From NCBI GenBank assembly GCA_039795875.1, contig JBDKKY010000001.1:750-64749 (forward strand): 64,000 nt of DNA, in the 5' to 3' direction. Under the pieces are notes generated by a model, which made no database searches, was not told the origin of the DNA, and was given only the letters and a program-made list of their open reading frames with translations. The translations under genes and the position numbers were made by a program. The stretch is from Candidatus Parcubacteria bacterium (lineage in GTDB: Bacteria; Patescibacteriota; Minisyncoccia; Phycocordibacterales; CAIZLB01). This document shows positions 3,656-63,511 of the stretch, piece by piece; position 1 is the first letter of the stretch, and every line of letters starts with the position of its first letter.

Positions 3656-6364
3656 CTAGTCTACATCTTCAACCAGAGCCTTGACAGTGTGAGAGCTCTT
3701 GATCTTGCTCTTATGTCCCGCTGATTTGATTTCAAATTTCATTTCATTGTTCTTATCCATGTCGATAACCACCCTCGCTCCACTTTTTATACCTTCAGTG
3801 ATCATCATAGACGCCAACGGTGTCAACACCTTAGTCTGAATCAATCGTCGAAGCGGTCGCGCTCCATATTGAGGGTTGTATCCTTCTTTGGCTAGATACT
3901 CATACACTGGATCTTTAAGTTCCAGAGTAATCTCTTTCTCAGTCAATCGAGCTTGAACTTTCTTAACTTCAATATCGACGATCTTACGTATGGCTTCTGG
4001 TTTCAAGACGTCGAACAGAATGATCTCATCAAGTCGGTTCAAGAATTCTGGTCGGAAATAATCTTTGAGACTTTCCATAACTTTTTCTTTAACATCATCG
4101 TATGATTGAGAGTCATCATTTGAAGTTGAGAAACCAATATTTTTCATCTTATCGATGTATTGAGCACCAATGTTCGAGGTCATGATAATGATTGTATTTT
4201 TAAAATTCACTGTTCGGCCTTTTGAATCAGTCAATCGTCCGTTATCAAGGACTTGCAAAAGAATATTGAAAATATCTGGGTGAGCTTTTTCAATCTCATC
4301 AAAGAGAATCACTGAGTACGGTCGGTGTTTTACTTTATCAACCAAGTTTCCAGATGTATCATCGTGACCAACATAACCTGGAGGTGCTCCGATAATCTTA
4401 GAGACTGAATGTCTCTCGGCAAATTCAGACATATCAACTCGGATCAATGATTTTTCATTTTCAAACATAAAGTCAGCCAAAGCTTTAGTAAGCTCTGTCT
4501 TTCCTACTCCGGTTGGTCCAAGAAAAATGAACGAGCCAATAGGTCGGAGGGGATCGTGAATACCAACCCGTGATCGTTTGATAGTATCAGAAACTTTTTT
4601 AACCGCCTCATCTTGCCCAACAACTTGGGCTTTAAGAACTTCTTCCATGCGTCCAAGTTTTTTAACCTCTTCTTCAAGCATACGGGTTACAGGAACTCCG
4701 GTCCATCGCGCAACAACCTGAGCGATATCTGCCTCGTTGATCTCTTCTTTCAGAACTCGTTTATTGCTGTCCATTTTTCGAAGTTTCTTCAATCGAGCCT
4801 CTAGGTCTTTTTCCAACATTGGCAATTTGCCATAACGAATCTCAGCCGCTTTTCCAAGATCAGCACGTGCTTCCGCACGCTCCGCCTCTTGCCGAAGAGT
4901 TTCTAGATTTTTCTTAATCTCTTTGATGCTATTCAAAGCATCTCGTTCTGACTGCCATTTGGCCTCTGTATCTTTGATGCCATCTTTGACATCAGCAATA
5001 TTTAACTCTAGTTCCTTGATACGCTCTTTAGTGGCTTTATTTTCAGGATCTTTGAGCAATGCCTCTCGTTCGATCTCTAGGCGCATGATCTTTCGATGCG
5101 CGTCTTCAACCGCCTGTGGTTTATTTTCCAAAGAAATCTTAAGAGATGAGGCCGCTTCATCGATCAGGTCAACGGCTTTATCTGGCAATTGTCTATCCGT
5201 AATATATCGTGCGGAAAGTGATACCGCTGCAACAATAGCTTCATCGAGTATTCGTACACCGTGGAACAATTCGTATTTGTCTTTCAATCCTCGCAAAATC
5301 GCTGTTGCATCTTCCAATGTTGGCTCCTGAACATACACAGGTTGAAAACGTCTCTGCAGGGCAGGATCTTTTTCGATGTGTTTTTGATATTCTCGTAGAG
5401 TGGTCGCACCGATAGCGCGAAGCTCTCCGCGTGCCAGTGCAGGCTTCAACATATTTGAAGCATCAAGAGATCCTTCTGTTCCACCAGCACCCATGATGGT
5501 GTGTGTCTCATCGATAAACATGATGATCTTACCGTCGGCCTTCTCAACTTCTTTTAAAATATTTTTTAAGCGATCTTCGAATTCTCCTCGATACTTAGTG
5601 CCTGCAACCAGCGACCCCATATCAAGTGACAACAGTTCTTTGTCCTTCAATGATTCTGGAATATCCCCCATGGCGATACGATTGGCCAATCCTTCGACAA
5701 TGGCTGTTTTACCGACTCCAGCTTCTCCAAGAAGTATCGGATTATTTTTTGTTCGCCGTGAAAGGATCTGAATCACTCGTGAGATCTCTGCATCTCGTCC
5801 GATCACTGGATCAAGTTTGTGCTCACGTGCAAGTGCAGTTAAGTTTCGGGTATATTTTGTTAAAACTTTGGCTTTCTTTGCATCTGTTTGTTGACCACCA
5901 GACGTACCGTTAGTTTTTTGAGATTTGATCAATTCCAAAGTCTCAATACATTTTTCTTTATCAATTTTAAATTTCTCGATCAATTCTCGTCCAGGATTGA
6001 GCGAGTCAAAAAAGGCAATGAAGAGATGCTCCACTGAAACAAAGTTGTCTTTTACTAAAGCTGAGACGGCACCTGAGGCTTCGATGATCGCAGCAAGTTC
6101 TGGTGTTAGGAAAAGTTGATACGCCGGGCTCAGTGTGTTTGAGGCCTCAGTTGAATCGATGGCTTCGAAAGCGTTGTCGGCCATCAAGATAAAATCAACC
6201 TCCATCTTTTCAAGCAGAGTGGTAACCAGAGTGTCTTCTTGGGTCAAGAGTGAGGCTAGGAGGTGCATTGGCTGGACATTTGTTTGTCCTCGTTCTATGG
6301 CCAATTCGTGGGCTCGACGAATAGCCTCCTTGGCTCTCGTAGTGAAGTGATTTAAGGGTAACAT
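3656..6364 (-). CDS. clpB: ATP-dependent chaperone ClpB (Hsp100)
   Basis: 902 aa; Clp N domain, two AAA+ modules ([15 protein letters not shown] and [15 protein letters not shown] Walker A motifs) and a long middle coiled coil. Confidence 0.95.
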
Positions 6365-25364: not shown

Positions 25365-25370
25365 GTCATG

Positions 25371-25443
25371 TGCGCATGCTTGGGTTCGAACCAAGGACCT
25401 TTCGAGTATCAGTCGAATGCTCTACCAACTGAGCTACACGCGC
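25371..25443 (-). tRNA. tRNA-Ile (GAT)
   Basis: GCGCGTG acceptor, anticodon arm TTCGA-CTGATAC-TCGAA, T-arm CTTGG-TTCGAAC-CCAAG. Confidence 0.85.
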
Positions 25444-25669
25444 ATTATTCGTCTTCGTTCTCGGACCGCACGAAGCAGTCCTTCACTCATCCTCATAATG
25501 AAGAAGACAAGACATTCTCCGCGCTCCGACGCTTCACGATAGAAGCGCTGCGCGCATCGTCGTAAATGCCTACAGAGACGTGGACAATCTACAACGACGA
25601 ATAAACGATATTATACACAAAAACTGCCATTTGGCAATTTATTCTGATTTTAAATAGCTATTTTGGACC

Positions 25670-26272
25670 TTATTTAGCAACAGCTTTTTGTACGAAGAAC
25701 TTACCAGCGTCCTCCATTTCTGTCAAAGACTCACAGGCATTTGTTCCAGACAATCGGCCTGCATTTGTAGCAGTTGCCTTACCTCGTAGCTTAGGGTCAG
25801 ACTCTGTCGAACTTACAAGTTCACCCAATGAACCATATGTGTCAACTCGCTTCTTAATATACATCTCAACCGCAGTACGTGATTCTGCCCCACTGTCGGC
25901 AACAAAGACTTTGGTGTCTGATTTTGCGGGGAATGCCGGAGCTGACGCCGCATCTGTATACCAGGCAAATGTACATGAAGTATTTCTCTGTACTATGGCT
26001 GATCTACTATAATTACAAGCTGAACGCTCCATACATCCATCTCCACCTTGTCCTGGGACGTATCTACCTTGTCCTGGGACATATCCACCTTTTGTGACAT
26101 CACCTGATACAGCGCCTGCTGTAGGAGTTGTTGCAGTAGTAGGGTTATTTATCAATACTGCCTTAGTTGTGGCGGCTTGATTATCTTTATTGCTAATCGA
26201 TGTGCGTACACTGTAGACAATTGACGCTACAATAATTGCCAAAAGAACAACAATAGTTAATGTTTTTTTCAT
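25670..26272 (-). CDS. hypothetical signal-anchored secreted protein encoded in the 16S/tRNA-Ile spacer
   Basis: 200 aa; N-terminal TM LTIVVLLAIIVASIVY; contains a 21-nt tandem duplication encoding YVPGQG RYVPGQG. Confidence 0.5.
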   Translation of the reverse strand: MKKTLTIVVLLAIIVASIVYSVRTSISNKDNQAATTKAVLINNPTTATTPTAGAVSGDVTKGGYVPGQGRYVPGQGGDGCMERSACNYSRSAIVQRNTSCTFAWYTDAASAPAFPAKSDTKVFVADSGAESRTAVEMYIKKRVDTYGSLGELVSSTESDPKLRGKATATNAGRLSGTNACESLTEMEDAGKFFVQKAVAK

Positions 26273-26566
26273 ATACTAATATTGTATCACCTACTTCAAG
26301 AAAAAGAAAAAACCTTTATGAACATAATTCACACAGGTCTTTTCTCAACAAATAAGAATTTTCACAAATCAACGCTTGTTACAAGTTAAATAATTAAATC
26401 TATTATTTTGTTCTGTTTGGCCAGTCTTTCCTGGGGTCAAAATCTTTACGTGATTCCCACGCTCTAAATGCGACGAGTTAGAGTCTCGTTTATACAGTGC
26501 AAGCAAAGTATAAGAACGACCGCTATAAATTTTATACCCTCCCTAAAGAGGACATAAAACAGTTTT

Positions 26567-28110
<1,544 letters not shown>

Positions 28111-28554
28111 ACTCAAACAGAACAAAAGAAAGGATTCAATAAACTTAACTTAATAACTTGCGTTTTTTTGTGATGTATTCCTATTTAGTTTTCAAAAAAC
28201 AATCACAGAGTTCCCTCTATCTTTCTGATAGAAGTTCTTCTACTTTCCACAAGTGGAGTTAGAGGACACTTACTGCAATGGAACCAATTATACGCATATG
28301 GAAACCAAAGTCAAGCGTCTCATAGACTATTTTATCCTTATGATATAAGGGTTTTTTAGTGGTCTTTTTATTTGTCTTTAAAAGACCCTTATTTTACAGC
28401 GCTTTTATCCAAAAATAGTATCTAACTTTTAATTGGAGGCTCGTCGTAAGGGGTCACTTGATGTATTTGACAAGATTTTTGGGGTTGATATACTTACATC
28501 ATCTTCGGGACTTTCCCGCGACTCCACGAAAGTGGAGGCAATGACAAGGGCTCC

Positions 28555-28962
28555 TCAATTGAGGGGCTCTTGTTTTATATACAGACTTTCAAACTCTTTC
28601 TGTATGTTTCGCTTATCAAGTCGATCTACTTCGCCCAATTTATTCATTAACCTTCTATAATCCAGAACCCTGGCTTGATGCAGACAGACTCTAACCTCTT
28701 TTCCTTTTTGCCTAATAGGTACATACCAACTGCCACTTTTCGATTTAGAAGTCATAGGTAAGGTGAAATAAAAATTATGACTCAACTTAGTGTGTATATA
28801 CACAGGCCGAGCAAAGTTCTTACCCTTTCCATTAATTTCCTGTCCAACATTGTCGCCCATATTTGCCCACCAGATATCACCCTCTAAAACATATGGTGGT
28901 GCATGCCCCCGATCATGAATCTTCATCTTTAGTTTGATCCACTCCAAAAACCTTTTTATCAT
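28555..28962 (-). CDS. PemK/MazF-family endoribonuclease toxin-like protein (no apparent antitoxin gene)
   Basis: GDIWWANMG...GQEINGKGKNFARPVYIH, LPMTSKSK and QARVLDYRRL align with the Kid/PemK/MazF pattern (GEIW...G.E..G.RPV.I / P.TS / Q.R..D). Confidence 0.65.
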   Translation of the reverse strand: MIKRFLEWIKLKMKIHDRGHAPPYVLEGDIWWANMGDNVGQEINGKGKNFARPVYIHTKLSHNFYFTLPMTSKSKSGSWYVPIRQKGKEVRVCLHQARVLDYRRLMNKLGEVDRLDKRNIQKEFESLYIKQEPLN

Positions 28963-29057
28963 TGAATAAATATTAACAATAAATACCTCAAGGAAACCTT
29001 AGGGACTACCTAAGAAAATATAAATTTATTCCGTTCTTCCTGAACATATTCTGACTT

Positions 29058-29134
29058 TGGAGCCAATGGCCGGAGTTGAACCGGCGACCTACTCCTTACC
29101 ATGGAGTTGCTCTACCGCGCTGAGCTACATCGGC
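29058..29134 (-). tRNA. tRNA-Thr (GGT)
   Basis: GCCGATG acceptor, anticodon arm ACTCC-ATGGTAA-GGAGT, T-arm GCCGG-TTCAACT-CCGGC, CCA encoded. Confidence 0.85.
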
Positions 29135-29151
29135 GATGTATAGAATATACC

Positions 29152-29868
29152 CTAATCTCGTTTTCTTTCCAAATAGACACTAATCGTTCGTCTCTTAAAC
29201 GGCTTACCCTCTTTGGTGACGTGCTTATATGATTTGATCATTTTATGAATCACAAAATACGGTGCGAATAATTCCTCAATCTCAGTCTGGGTAAACACAT
29301 GCTCCAAAACTTTCAATCGCGGGTGTATATATGAATTGTGCTCTTTATCAGGTGTAGGATATTGCTTAATCATACGTTTAGCATTCTCATCGGCTTCAAG
29401 AACAAAGGTCTTTAAAAACATCCAGCCAAAAGGCTTCACCACACGAGACAATTCTTTAGCATAGGCCGCTCGAGATTTCTCATTGAGAAAATGCATAGTC
29501 ATCATATCCAAAACAATATCAACGGATTCATTTTCAAGCTCAAGCTTATCTCCTACTTTACCCTGCTTAAATACAAGGTTAGGCAGATGCAATGTCTCTA
29601 TAAACTTGTGTTTTGCCTGAGCTAAAGCCGTCTCTGAAATGTCTATCCCAAGACCTCCCATCTTAAATTCTTCACAAACATTGCCAATATTGCGTCCATT
29701 GCCACACCCAATATCCAAAACAAACCCGCCTTCAGGAAAAGGGTCCCATTCTGAGTTTCTTTTGGCCCACCGTACAAACGACAATAGGTCCTCTGCTGGA
29801 TCCTCTGATAACGTTAAGTGTTCACCGGTTTTATACTCTTTGTTCCAGAATTGTTGGGTCATTGACAT
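29152..29868 (-). CDS. class I SAM-dependent methyltransferase
   Basis: motif I VLDIGCGNGRN and an acidic motif II. Confidence 0.7.
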   Translation of the reverse strand: MSMTQQFWNKEYKTGEHLTLSEDPAEDLLSFVRWAKRNSEWDPFPEGGFVLDIGCGNGRNIGNVCEEFKMGGLGIDISETALAQAKHKFIETLHLPNLVFKQGKVGDKLELENESVDIVLDMMTMHFLNEKSRAAYAKELSRVVKPFGWMFLKTFVLEADENAKRMIKQYPTPDKEHNSYIHPRLKVLEHVFTQTEIEELFAPYFVIHKMIKSYKHVTKEGKPFKRRTISVYLERKRD

Positions 29869-29910: not shown

Positions 29911-30705
29911 ATGTTAACTAAAGGACGTATACAATCTATAAGATCACTCTCTGAAAGAAAGCAACGAAATGCCAAGGGTGTTTTCGTGGTTGAAGGAGGT
30001 AAAAGTGTGGCTGAATTACTGATGACCGACCTTATTATCGAAGAATTGTACATCACTCACGAGTTTGCCAAGAAATACGAGACCGAATTGCACGCTGCCG
30101 GTAAGCGACAGGCTGAAGTCCAAAAATGGCTCAAGCCGCAACTGGTAGAAGCTGGTGAATTGAAACAGCTGAGCTCTCTTGAGGCTACTGACGGAGCATT
30201 GGCGATCGTAAAGCAACCAGCCAAGATTGAGATCGACATTGTGGAAGCAGCTAAGAAGGACATTGTACTTATACTTGAAGACATTCGAGATCCAGGAAAC
30301 TTGGGGACTATTATGCGTATTGCTGATTGGTATGGCGTTAAGAACATCTTTGCTTCTGTTGGAACAGTAGACATGTTCAACAACAAGACTATTATTGCCT
30401 CTATGGGCTCATTTGCTCGAGTCAATATTCAGTATGCCGAAGTGAAAGCGTTGATACAAAAATGTAACGAAAATAAAATTCTAACTATCGGTTCTGTTCT
30501 AGGAGGAAAAAGCTCTCACGAATATGCTTGGCCAAAAACGGGTGTGCTTGTTATTGGAAATGAAGCCAATGGTATTTACGAAGAAACACGATTTCTGTTA
30601 AAAAATACTGTGACCATTCCCTCATATGGAAAAGCTGAGTCCTTGAACGCGGGAGTTGCTACGGCTGTGTTGTTGGATGAGTGGAGACGAGCTGGCAGTA
30701 AGTAA
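29911..30705 (+). CDS. TrmH/SpoU-family RNA 2'-O-methyltransferase
   Basis: SPOUT motifs LILEDIRDPGNLGTIMRIADWYG, VIGNEANG, SLNAGVATAVLL. Confidence 0.85.
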   Translation: MLTKGRIQSIRSLSERKQRNAKGVFVVEGGKSVAELLMTDLIIEELYITHEFAKKYETELHAAGKRQAEVQKWLKPQLVEAGELKQLSSLEATDGALAIVKQPAKIEIDIVEAAKKDIVLILEDIRDPGNLGTIMRIADWYGVKNIFASVGTVDMFNNKTIIASMGSFARVNIQYAEVKALIQKCNENKILTIGSVLGGKSSHEYAWPKTGVLVIGNEANGIYEETRFLLKNTVTIPSYGKAESLNAGVATAVLLDEWRRAGSK

Positions 30706-30708
30706 TCT

Positions 30709-31278
30709 TTATCTTACCTTTGTAAAAGTAGAAGCAACATCTCTGAGTACGGTCAAATATTCAAATACGAACGGACTGTCGGCTTTCATGGAGCCATAGA
30801 TTGCAACTCCTAGCCCAGTATCCAATACCACCCTCACATCAGTATCTGCAGGGCTTTGTGTTGGACAAAGGAAGCGAATCTGCTGCTCCTTACCAGCTAT
30901 CGTAACTTTCTTAGGCGACAAACATTCCTTAAAATCTGAACCAAAACCTGTTGGCTTTGCAGTTATCGTAAATATGTATGGAAAACCTTCTTGAGAAAGG
31001 TACAGGGCATCCGGCACTTCTTCTACTTGCCAGTTTGAGGGATATTTAAATGAAAAGTTAGGAGTTGAGTAGAGCACCTGTGTTATGGGCACTGGCGGAT
31101 TATACAAAGGTTGATATGGTGTATCACTTCCTGTAACTGGAGTAGAGGTTGTCGATATAGTCATCGGTACAATAGGAGTCACATCCTTTCTCACATACCA
31201 ATACGTAACCCCAGCTGTTAGCGCAATAACAACAAGTAACATCAACAAAGTCCCTAAAAATCCTTTTTGGGTATTCAT
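30709..31278 (-). CDS. hypothetical N-terminally anchored protein
   Basis: 189 aa; TM LGTLLMLLVVIALTAGV. Confidence 0.5.
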   Translation of the reverse strand: MNTQKGFLGTLLMLLVVIALTAGVTYWYVRKDVTPIVPMTISTTSTPVTGSDTPYQPLYNPPVPITQVLYSTPNFSFKYPSNWQVEEVPDALYLSQEGFPYIFTITAKPTGFGSDFKECLSPKKVTIAGKEQQIRFLCPTQSPADTDVRVVLDTGLGVAIYGSMKADSPFVFEYLTVLRDVASTFTKVR

Positions 31279-61563: not shown

Positions 61564-61824
61564 TTACACATACAGCTTGGCATGAGTCCCAATATCTATC
61601 AATACAGCGACGCCATCACTTTCATATGCGAAAATAGCTCGGTAATCTGCATTTACATTAAAACTGTACTTACCTGCATATCTACCTCTAAGGCCATGTA
61701 CATTCAATATTGAGTCATACTGATCTACCATGAATAGAGCTTGTCGTTCTTTGAACTTTCGCTGTATATTCTTAGGCAACTTTTTATATTGCTTCACAAA
61801 ATATTTGCTGTATATAATCTCCAT
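61564..61824 (-). CDS. RelE/ParE-family type II toxin
   Basis: 86 aa; F.KQYKKLPK...L.G.L.G.....S..V..DYR.IF pattern of RelE/ParE mRNA interferases; 3-nt gap to the upstream antitoxin gene. Confidence 0.75.
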   Translation of the reverse strand: MEIIYSKYFVKQYKKLPKNIQRKFKERQALFMVDQYDSILNVHGLRGRYAGKYSFNVNADYRAIFAYESDGVAVLIDIGTHAKLYV

Positions 61825-61827
61825 ATA

Positions 61828-62103
61828 CTATTGTGCATCCAGCCAGGCAGCTGCTTCTTTGCTATTTTTAAACTTAGGAGACCTATCCCCCTTTTTCTCT
61901 TTCATAACCTCACGAATGGCCGCTTCCAGGTAAGGAGTCATCTGAGGTGCTAAAGACACCGTCAGCTCTTGGGTAGTAACAAAATTGCGCAGCATGGCGG
62001 ATACCACAGAGGACAAGTTGAAACCCATAGCATCAGCTAGATCTGCTGCTTTTTTCTTAAGACCTTTGTCTATCTTGATATTCATCATGGTTTTTATCTG
62101 CAT
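61828..62103 (-). CDS. RelB/DinJ-family antitoxin
   Basis: IKIDKGLKKKAADLADAMGFNLSSVVSAMLRNF resembles the DinJ/RelB RHH fold; operon partner of the RelE-like gene. Confidence 0.75.
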   Translation of the reverse strand: MQIKTMMNIKIDKGLKKKAADLADAMGFNLSSVVSAMLRNFVTTQELTVSLAPQMTPYLEAAIREVMKEKKGDRSPKFKNSKEAAAWLDAQ

Positions 62104-63421: not shown

Positions 63422-63424
63422 ATG

Positions 63425-63511
63425 CGGAGGATGTGAGATTCGAACTCACGGGGCAGTTTCCCACCCGACAGTTTAGTAAACTGTTGATTTAAACCACTCA
63501 TCCAATCCTCC
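63425..63511 (-). tRNA. class II (long variable arm) tRNA, Ser-like, with apparent anticodon ACT
   Basis: GGAGGAT/ATCCTCC acceptor, 3-bp D-stem, anticodon arm ACAGT-TTACTAA-ACTGT, long variable arm, T-arm GTGAG-TTCGAAT-CTCAC. Confidence 0.65.

Follow-up and report, generated by a model that had tools for sequence, protein, structure and literature searches.

What restrains a MazF-like toxin when no antitoxin gene lies beside it? The question is raised by an open reading frame (ORF) in a 64,000-nucleotide (nt) stretch of a Candidatus Parcubacteria genome (assembly GCA_039795875.1, contig JBDKKY010000001.1, positions 750 to 64,749; hereafter, the window). This ORF, at 28555..28962 on the minus strand, encodes 135 amino acids (aa) from an ATG start to a TGA stop at 28555-28557, and is wedged between a tRNA-Thr gene and the promoter region of the 16S rRNA gene, a placement recognized in an earlier note on this DNA and borne out here. 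The note, made from the letters and their ORFs only, offered three explanations: an orphan toxin, a toxin with an antitoxin in the form of a sub-60-aa ORF or an RNA, or a domesticated RNase. The evidence favors the RNA. In our best reading of the sequence, the locus is a self-contained, two-gene module of about 520 nt resembling toxin-antitoxin (TA) systems, in which a MazF-fold toxin would be paired with a convergent cis-antisense RNA.

A MazF-fold protein with a conserved N-terminal extension

The 135-aa protein matches the Pfam family PF02452 (PemK_toxin) over residues 28-124 with 33.2 bits, against a cutoff of 23.1 (E=6.5e-8), and PHROG 9567 ('MazF-like growth inhibitor') over residues 4-123. 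NCBIfam yielded only a sub-threshold MazF match for the toxin, and PADLOC none. A PDB search with the single sequence returned nothing significant, whereas a profile search succeeded, the subfamily profile matching Bacillus subtilis EndoA and Staphylococcus aureus MazF at E ~3e-6. In the AlphaFold2 model (pLDDT 83), residues 2-17 form an N-terminal helix, which is followed by a beta barrel and then by a helix at the C-terminus, and Foldseek comparison with the PDB identified the barrel as the SH3-like barrel of MazF, Kid and CcdB. The best matches were to MazF structures, with probability 1.0 (including MazF of S. aureus, B. subtilis, Escherichia coli and Mycobacterium tuberculosis) and target-normalized TM-scores of 0.65-0.78, and all of the 50 matches listed belong to the MazF family (MazF, EndoA/YdcE and MoxT).

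When the family profile is aligned with B. subtilis EndoA (4MDX), R52-P53 of the window protein fall on the catalytic R25-P26 and T71 on T48, and the motif QxRxxDyrRL aligns with EQIRTIDKQRL. The corresponding catalytic arginine and threonine of E. coli MazF are R29 and T52. Of 162 aligned family members, 161 retain R52 and 161 retain T/S71, and nine further positions (W8, K12, W31, W32, G36, N38, E42, G45 and K46) are essentially invariant. Family matches, fold and intact catalytic residues all uphold the initial identification of the product as MazF/PemK-like, and the protein is probably a constrained MazF-fold RNase rather than a decaying pseudogene.

The N-terminal extension of about 20 aa, also pointed out in the earlier note, is a genuine and conserved family trait: it carries the segment MIKRFLEWIKLKEKLH, and 27 relatives align with the window protein over the full length, this segment included. 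Given this conservation, we take the first ATG as the true start. The deposited annotation, a 123-aa 'hypothetical protein' starting at M13, appears to be mis-called and too short, because residues 1-12 are conserved in the family.

No protein partner accompanies the toxin gene

In the 95-nt gap between the tRNA-Thr gene and the ATG, there is no co-directional ORF of at least 20 aa except for one of 30 codons that overlaps the tRNA (29010..29102, minus strand), in agreement with the observation of the earlier note that no small antitoxin ORF fits upstream. The same holds for the relatives, in which a paired antitoxin was to be sought: no protein is conserved next to the gene in the approximately 84 related loci. 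Clustering of the ORFs of at least 40 aa located within 1.5 kb of the gene in 87 loci revealed no neighbor family common to more than four of these, and those clusters that were shared (by at most 4 of the 87) consisted of ordinary syntenic or housekeeping genes. The nearest ORF of at least 110 aa lies at a median distance of 135 nt upstream and 154 nt downstream. A small co-directional ORF within 150 nt is absent upstream in 62 of 84 loci and downstream in 60 of 84, and where co-directional ORFs are found upstream of the toxin, they are mutually unrelated as judged by phmmer. The option of a sub-60-aa protein antitoxin finds no support, as no conserved small ORF was found and most loci leave no room for one. 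Ten small ORFs of the window were scanned for a MazE/AbrB/PemI-type domain, and none has one.

Two candidates were rejected along the way. A recurrent upstream ORF of about 185 aa turned out not to be one family, with all-against-all phmmer comparison linking syntenic pairs only, and a 96-aa ORF upstream of the gene in L004 to L006 is restricted to that single lineage.

Elsewhere in the window, at 61564-62103 on the minus strand, there is a type II TA pair, consisting of a RelB-family antitoxin of 91 aa (61828-62103) and, downstream, an 86-aa YafQ/RelE/ParE-like toxin (61564-61824) that scores slightly below the Pfam cut-off (28.6 vs 30 bits). The adjacency of this pair indicates that the genome keeps protein antitoxins next to their toxins in the usual way.

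A predicted convergent RNA gene at the 3' end of the toxin gene

The feature that does accompany the gene lies just beyond its stop codon, on the opposite strand. The earlier note considered the plus-strand ORF 28433..28660 spurious, which it is, but the same stretch holds an RNA gene that was missed. Similarly, the region downstream of the toxin gene had been taken for the rRNA leader; the 16S promoter is indeed there, but a separate conserved antisense RNA gene is located between this promoter and the ORF.

The predicted transcription unit (28467-28580, plus strand) abuts the toxin stop codon. Its promoter, TTGACA-16-TGaTATACT, is of the near-consensus sigma-70 type; the promoter scan scored it 11 of 12 and registered a TG extension. 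Such motifs can be considered meaningful in this organism because the 16S promoter of the window is of the same consensus type and is conserved. The plus strand at 28498-28595 folds into three hairpins, the last of which consists of 14 pairs followed by UUGUUUUAU. The folding energy of this strand is -39.3 kcal/mol (z -5.9), compared with a z of -3.8 for the minus strand, where G.U pairs turn into C.A mismatches. The toxin stop codon is located at the tip of the terminator hairpin, and the 3' part of the small RNA (sRNA) is antisense to this stop codon and to the ~8 codons that precede it in the toxin ORF.

In the alignment of the window with its syntenic counterpart L007, conservation is much higher in a block immediately 3' of the stop than in the sequence around it. 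The block is also present in syntenic L090 and in the non-syntenic loci L093 and L094, the latter two with visible whole-stem compensatory changes, and in all four relatives both hexamers of the sRNA promoter are kept while the spacer has diverged. Rfam gave no relevant match in this region of the window at E<=10, nor in eight representative loci at E<=1; a match to the Phe leader was discarded as a chance hit that reflects the terminator.

Covariation and strand preference of the RNA element across the family

An alignment of 36 sequences yielded two helices, with compensatory changes in 8 of the 11 pairs, and was used to build a covariance model, R1. This model produced 95 matches in 580 kb, all but a few of which abut the 3' end of a family gene in the antisense orientation; the window match (28486-28587, plus strand) scores 37 bits (E 1.4e-3). 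The family-wide statistics given below come from an alignment of 89 distinct rows derived from the R1 matches. In this alignment, 98.5% of the stem cells are paired, and double changes occur in 10 of the 11 pairs (160 cells). None of 500 shuffled controls attained the observed pairing values, and sliding the partner by 1-3 columns reduced the paired fraction to 49-71%. Twenty-seven G.U pairs work only if the element is read as antisense RNA, as opposed to 6 that work only as mRNA.

Printing the 3' flanks of all loci revealed a near-universal layout. Downstream of the stop, the order is AATATT, the GC-rich hairpin A, CCG, hairpin B, AATGTA, the reverse complement of a -10 box, ~16 nt, and TGTCAA. 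The -10 box is nearly universal in the 89 elements and is preceded by TG in 40. Anchored on it, a -35 box (at least 5 of 6 positions of TTGACA) is found at a spacer of 16-18 in 58 elements, and in only 4 at all other spacers from 10 to 29. The sRNA is predicted to be ~80 nt long in the window, whereas most relatives have a shorter one of about 55-60 nt. Primary sequence is conserved in hairpin B, in the linker and in the single-stranded 5' stretch between loci with proteins only 45-50% identical, and across phyla.

The linkage extends to distant homologs. Those from viral contigs (only 32-41% protein identity) still have the element in the corresponding position and orientation, its stems being made up of wholly different sequence. 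Homologs on Campylobacterota plasmids have a similar element by eye, which R1 does not detect; on a Nitratiruptor plasmid and on pVir of Campylobacter jejuni 81-176, the other strand carries an extended -10, with hairpins after it, where the toxin gene ends. An exact-pattern scan of metagenome contigs for the RNA block of the window clade found none, the pattern being too strict.

This strict linkage between protein and RNA argues against the orphan-toxin option, since almost no copy lacks the conserved partner RNA gene. The sRNA gene is duplicated in tandem in three loci (L004:4376-4562, L049:3385-3556 and L098:2819-2978), each duplicate having its own promoter at least in L004. A solitary element at L067:709-786, located between unrelated genes and with a decayed -10, is probably the remnant of a lost module.

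Two short motifs near the RNA start deserve mention. A perfect DnaA-box-like 9-mer, TTATCCACA, lies ~6-8 nt upstream of the sRNA -35 in L046, L050, L057, L066 and L068 (also L027), and in reverse orientation in L072; it is absent in the window, and its frequency in this subclade is far above chance. Its position suggests that the sRNA could be under DnaA control in that subclade. UACAU or UACUU is found at the 5' end of the RNA in many relatives, and UACAU is the recognition site of B. subtilis MazF (PMC6562991). As a possible site of action of the toxin at the RNA 5' end, this motif is a weak lead only, because the window copy of UACAU lies upstream of the predicted start.

Expression signals of the toxin gene

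Seven nucleotides separate a predicted extended -10 element from the toxin ATG at 28962. The pattern TGnTAnnnT is kept 6 nt from the ATG in the close relatives L007, L090, L093 and L094. Across the family, 55 of 85 loci have TAnnnT at a distance of 5-8 nt from the start codon, and 19 loci have the TG-extended form at 6-9 nt; a second mode at 20-23 nt is represented by 30 loci, mostly from Peribacteria. With the -10 box so close to the start and no Shine-Dalgarno sequence evident at the toxin start, most members, that of the window included, are predicted to be leaderless; for the window gene, with the transcription start placed from these motifs, the mRNA is probably leaderless or nearly so. 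A terminator-like hairpin (29015-28997 in the terminator scan) separates the tRNA-Thr transcript from the toxin promoter. The coordinates of these and the other features of the locus are given in Table 1.

In a subclade from Peribacteria and Gracilibacteria, a conserved direct repeat, TTCAGG-N5-6-(T/G)TCAGGAC, occupies the -35 position and is followed by TATAAT and a ~22-nt leader (L008, L009, L010, L014, L019, L022, L030, L031, L035, L044, L053, L060, L065, L083, L084 and others). This repeat may be an operator or a lineage-specific promoter element.

Table 1. Features of the toxin and antisense RNA locus and its immediate context (window coordinates).
Feature	Coordinates	Strand	Details and basis
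MazF/PemK-fold toxin gene	28555..28962	-	N-terminal helix residues 2-17, catalytic R52 and T71; Pfam, PHROG, AlphaFold2/Foldseek, profile alignment
Predicted toxin promoter, extended -10 TGtTAATAT	28970..28978	-	TG 28978-28977, hexamer 28975-28970
Antisense sRNA promoter	28467..28494	+	-35 TTGACA 28467-28472, 16-nt spacer, TG 28486-28487, -10 TATACT 28489-28494
Predicted ~80-nt cis-antisense sRNA	28501..28580	+	Folding, covariance model R1; ends predicted
Hairpin B	28506-28518	+	Folding
Hairpin A	28522-28537	+	Folding
Terminator hairpin, U-rich tail to ~28580	28543-28574	+	Folding
tRNA-Thr(GGT), upstream neighbor (context)	29058-29134	-	tRNA calls; same neighbor in syntenic L007
Terminator-like hairpin after tRNA-Thr (context)	28997..29015	-	Terminator scan
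16S rRNA promoter, TTGACT-16-TATAAT (context)	28287..28314 (28314->28287)	-	Promoter scan 11/12; conserved in L007, L091, L092
16S rRNA	26568-28109	-	Rfam (SSU)

Distribution and genomic context of the family

A profile search retrieved 2718 representatives of clusters at 50% identity, 1630 of these at E<=1e-10 and most spanning profile positions 1-129, and a scan of reference genomes gave 549 confirmed loci. The 80 of these 549 loci that were listed come overwhelmingly from Patescibacteria (Peribacteria, Peregrinibacteria, Gracilibacteria, Paceibacterota and 'Saccharibacteria'), with a few from metagenome-assembled genomes (MAGs) of Alphaproteobacteria. Several genomes carry 3-5 family copies, and the paralogs within a genome have diverged to 55-77% identity. 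Homologs are also present on plasmids, prophages and viral contigs.

The close relatives preserve the setting of the window gene. L007 is syntenic, with 75% protein identity and the same tRNA-Thr/gene/16S order, and gene order and the 3' block are kept in L090 to L092. In the non-syntenic loci L093 and L094, the gene follows a yibE-family gene, with a parB gene next in L094. Farther away, the contexts are mutually unrelated: gatC/ligA in L001, ruvB and a gene for a type II secretion system ATPase in L002, the 3' side of a ribonucleotide reductase gene in L004, and tuf/fusA, rpoC, yibE or parB in others. Association with tRNA or rRNA was accordingly rejected as a family trait, with a tRNA found within 600 nt in 8 of 87 loci, not clearly more than the ~4-5 expected by chance (a rough estimate), and 16S adjacency confined to the closest relatives. 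A mobile element with terminal repeats or an integron attC site was also considered and rejected: there are no flanking inverted or direct repeats, and the neighbors are housekeeping genes, not cassette arrays.

Complete modules, with a protein 51-56% identical and the RNA element, are present in MAG contigs of 73-229 kb assigned to Hyphomicrobiales/Alphaproteobacteria (L015, L028 and L056), which implies that the module has been transferred horizontally between the Candidate Phyla Radiation (CPR) and other phyla, or that these contigs were mis-binned. In L004, an RNase P RNA was detected immediately downstream of the module (4652-5060, minus strand) with 67.7 bits against an Rfam gathering threshold of 100 (E 1.5e-18), a sub-threshold score consistent with divergent RNase P RNA in CPR bacteria.

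Two further observations concern the surroundings in the window itself. Rfam finds only the small-subunit rRNA gene, with no 23S gene after the 16S gene (region 25370-28109, minus strand) or anywhere in the window, and a 200-aa ORF (25670-26272) lies between the 16S gene and tRNA-Ile(GAT), so that the rRNA genes appear to be unlinked. ARAGORN predicts a tRNA-Ser at 63424-63511 (minus strand) with the anticodon ACT, in which A at position 34 is unusual; the Rfam tRNA model gives it 54 bits.

A proposed RNA-antitoxin module and its alternatives

We propose that the two genes work as follows. The toxin mRNA would be transcribed from the extended -10 beside the ATG, giving a leaderless message for a MazF/PemK-fold endoribonuclease. 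The sRNA, driven by the stronger, near-consensus sigma-70 promoter, would be abundant, with its terminator and U-rich tail overlapping the toxin stop and last codons. No terminator for the toxin mRNA lies ahead of the sRNA gene, so that the message should read through this gene and become fully complementary to the sRNA. Pairing of the abundant sRNA with the 3' end of the message would lead to cleavage of the duplex (for example, by RNase III) or to loss of protective 3' hairpins, such that the toxin mRNA decays and little toxin is made. If sRNA synthesis stopped or the module were lost, the remaining toxin mRNA would be translated, and the RNase would be expected to arrest growth.

The layout and the stronger RNA promoter, together with the patchy multi-copy spread, the occurrence on plasmids and prophages, the diverged paralogs, the RNA remnant and the tandem duplicates, all fit an RNA-antitoxin TA module. 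We are confident that the protein-plus-RNA module is real, and put the probability that the RNA is an antitoxin acting mainly by antisense pairing at roughly 0.6.

Several points weigh against this mechanism. Promoters, start sites and terminators were all predicted from consensus motifs, in a lineage that has not been cultivated; the wobble counts were taken from an alignment fitted to the model; and the U tract 3' of hairpin A is imperfect in most relatives (AAUAUUUUUAU). With few exceptions, the type I toxins described so far are small peptides of the membrane rather than RNases. Finally, hairpin B and the linker (UUCGGGAUUUUCCCGCGR) are conserved beyond what antisense pairing alone would need, a pattern that hints at recognition by a protein.

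The last point is an argument for the strongest rival, under which the MazF-fold protein is itself the target of the conserved sRNA, which would bind it as an inhibitor or pseudo-substrate and might be processed by it, either in place of pairing with the mRNA or in addition to it, as in type III systems. The conserved 5' stretch of the RNA and the frequent UACAU or UACUU at its 5' end point in the same direction, and the tandem duplicates would raise RNA dosage as in repeat-based RNA antitoxins. ToxN, a type III toxin, reportedly has a Kid/MazF-like fold and is neutralized by RNA, as Blower and colleagues are said to have shown in 2011. On the other side, the toxin strand carries no tandem repeats upstream of the gene, the RNA gene runs convergently into the end of the ORF, the window UACAU precedes the predicted sRNA start, and the sequence conservation could equally reflect requirements of an RNase or of the terminator. 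We regard this alternative as possible, although clearly less probable than antisense action. Similarly tentative is the broader idea of a class intermediate between types I and III, in which a leaderless MazF-fold RNase would be controlled by a conserved sRNA serving both as antisense RNA and as protein ligand or decoy, expanded in the CPR and wired to DnaA in one subclade.

Alternatively, the hairpins could act in cis only, as a 3' untranslated region of the toxin mRNA (a stabilizer, terminator or regulatory site), the opposite promoter being non-functional and the toxin a true orphan. Both hairpins can form in the mRNA sense too, the wobble bias in the seed alignment is weak (~8 to 5), and the sRNA promoter is known here from sequence alone. 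But correctly spaced -35 and -10 boxes are conserved on the opposite strand in most of the 89 elements despite a diverged spacer, the G.U pairs of the larger alignment favor the antisense strand more than fourfold, the U-rich tail follows the hairpins in the antisense sense only, and the third hairpin of the window pairs better on the plus strand. Together, these observations make a purely cis-acting role unlikely.

The proposal that the gene is a domesticated housekeeping RNase for tRNA or rRNA processing, which would explain its site between tRNA-Thr and the 16S promoter, finds some support in the preservation of that site among close relatives (the tRNA in L007; gene order and 3' block in L090 to L092) and in the 8 of 87 loci with a tRNA nearby. 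It is very improbable, however, as the position is kept in close relatives only, contexts are unrelated in all other loci, a genome may hold up to five diverged paralogs, homologs reside on plasmids, prophages and viral contigs, and both a promoter and a partner RNA belong to the module itself. An ordinary type II toxin with a MazE-like antitoxin encoded elsewhere and acting in trans is about as improbable: the window covers only 64 kb of the genome, and solitary type II toxins are reported in surveys (such as PMC3141249 and PMC2701414), but no protein is conserved beside the gene in its relatives, the small window ORFs scanned lack a suitable domain, the RelB/YafQ-type pair of the same genome is adjacent as normal, and the partner RNA is the sole feature always linked to the gene.

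MazF toxins are textbook type II toxins; if antisense control is the right explanation, the protein antitoxin has been replaced by a conserved antisense RNA in this large subfamily, many "orphan" MazF annotations are not orphans, and the type-based classification of TA systems does not track toxin fold. Tools that find TA systems as gene pairs miss such modules, and in the source record the gene is a shortened hypothetical protein. CPR genomes are about 1 Mb in size, with few known regulatory RNAs or defense systems, yet keep several diverged copies of the module, which points to a real selective role; phage defense, stabilization of genome regions, and growth control in an epibiotic lifestyle are possible roles. 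The element is also one of few well-supported small RNA families in the CPR lineage, with a covariance model and usable promoter motifs. Our literature search turned up no publication that connects MazF/PemK with an RNA antitoxin or with Patescibacteria, and none describing this module; a 'pemK RNA motif' reportedly due to Weinberg et al. 2017 is absent from the main text of that paper, and no Rfam model matches the element.

Comparison with known toxin-antitoxin systems

With MazF, PemK, Kid and EndoA (PF02452), the window toxin shares the fold, the positions of the catalytic Arg-Pro and Thr, and the QxRxxDxxRL motif. Unlike these, the window family has no MazE/PemI/Kis-type antitoxin gene in the operon, adds an N-terminal helix (with W8 and K12) and a WW...GxNxGxExxGK loop, and has a predicted leaderless mRNA and an opposite-strand RNA gene for a partner. 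The locus is not a type II mazEF/pemIK/kis-kid operon, because an adjacent protein antitoxin was looked for and is absent.

Type III systems (ToxIN, AbiQ/antiQ and CptIN) resemble the module in combining an endoribonuclease toxin with a small structured RNA antitoxin. Their RNA, however, is a same-strand tandem-repeat array upstream of the toxin gene that is processed by the toxin, whereas the window RNA is a convergent antisense gene. Tandem Repeats Finder and a repeat search detected no ToxI-like tandem array in 28100-29200, and the locus is therefore not a type III locus.

Antisense RNA antitoxins that control non-peptide, nuclease-type toxins are exemplified by SymE/SymR and RalR/RalA, where RalR is a DNase and SymE is AbrB/MazE-like. 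SymR overlaps the 5' end and ribosome-binding site of symE, whereas the window sRNA overlaps the 3' end of the toxin gene. SymR is mentioned in a review (PMC6562991) that also covers the type I antitoxins overlapping the 3' ends of toxin mRNAs.

A possible experimental precedent comes from pVir of C. jejuni 81-176. Its homolog WP_011117588 (pVir 30634-31038), annotated as a PemK/MazF family toxin, is ~32% identical to the window protein, and no antitoxin is annotated beside it. Where the gene ends, the opposite strand has a TGATATAAT box that precedes hairpins, an element that R1 does not score. In 2016, Shen and colleagues (Mol Microbiol 101:909) reportedly assigned cjrA/cjpT of pVir to type I, an antisense sRNA being the antitoxin. 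Judging by the anatomy of the locus, CjpT may be the product of the pVir PemK-like gene, so that the equivalence of cjrA/cjpT with the window module is presumptive. CjrA is cited as an antisense RNA antitoxin in PMC10470494 and PMC7826846; the text of T1TAdb makes no mention of cjrA or cjpT.

The closest mechanistic model is provided by the type I systems of B. subtilis with a 3' overlap, txpA/RatA, bsrG/SR4, bsrE/SR5 and yonT/SR6, in which duplex formation leads to RNase III cleavage and decay of the toxin mRNA (PMC6562991). The toxins differ: those of B. subtilis are small hydrophobic peptides, in keeping with the typical, although not universal, type I pattern of hydrophobic peptides under ~60 aa, whereas the window toxin is a soluble, RNase-fold protein of 135 aa. 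The window sRNA is shorter than the B. subtilis antitoxins and conserved in sequence across phyla. The type I layout itself, with a promoter, covarying structure and terminator on the opposite strand overlapping the ORF end, is predicted in 89 elements. With the B. subtilis systems, the window module would share a convergent antitoxin gene whose structured transcript ends in a terminator and can pair with the toxin message at its 3' end.

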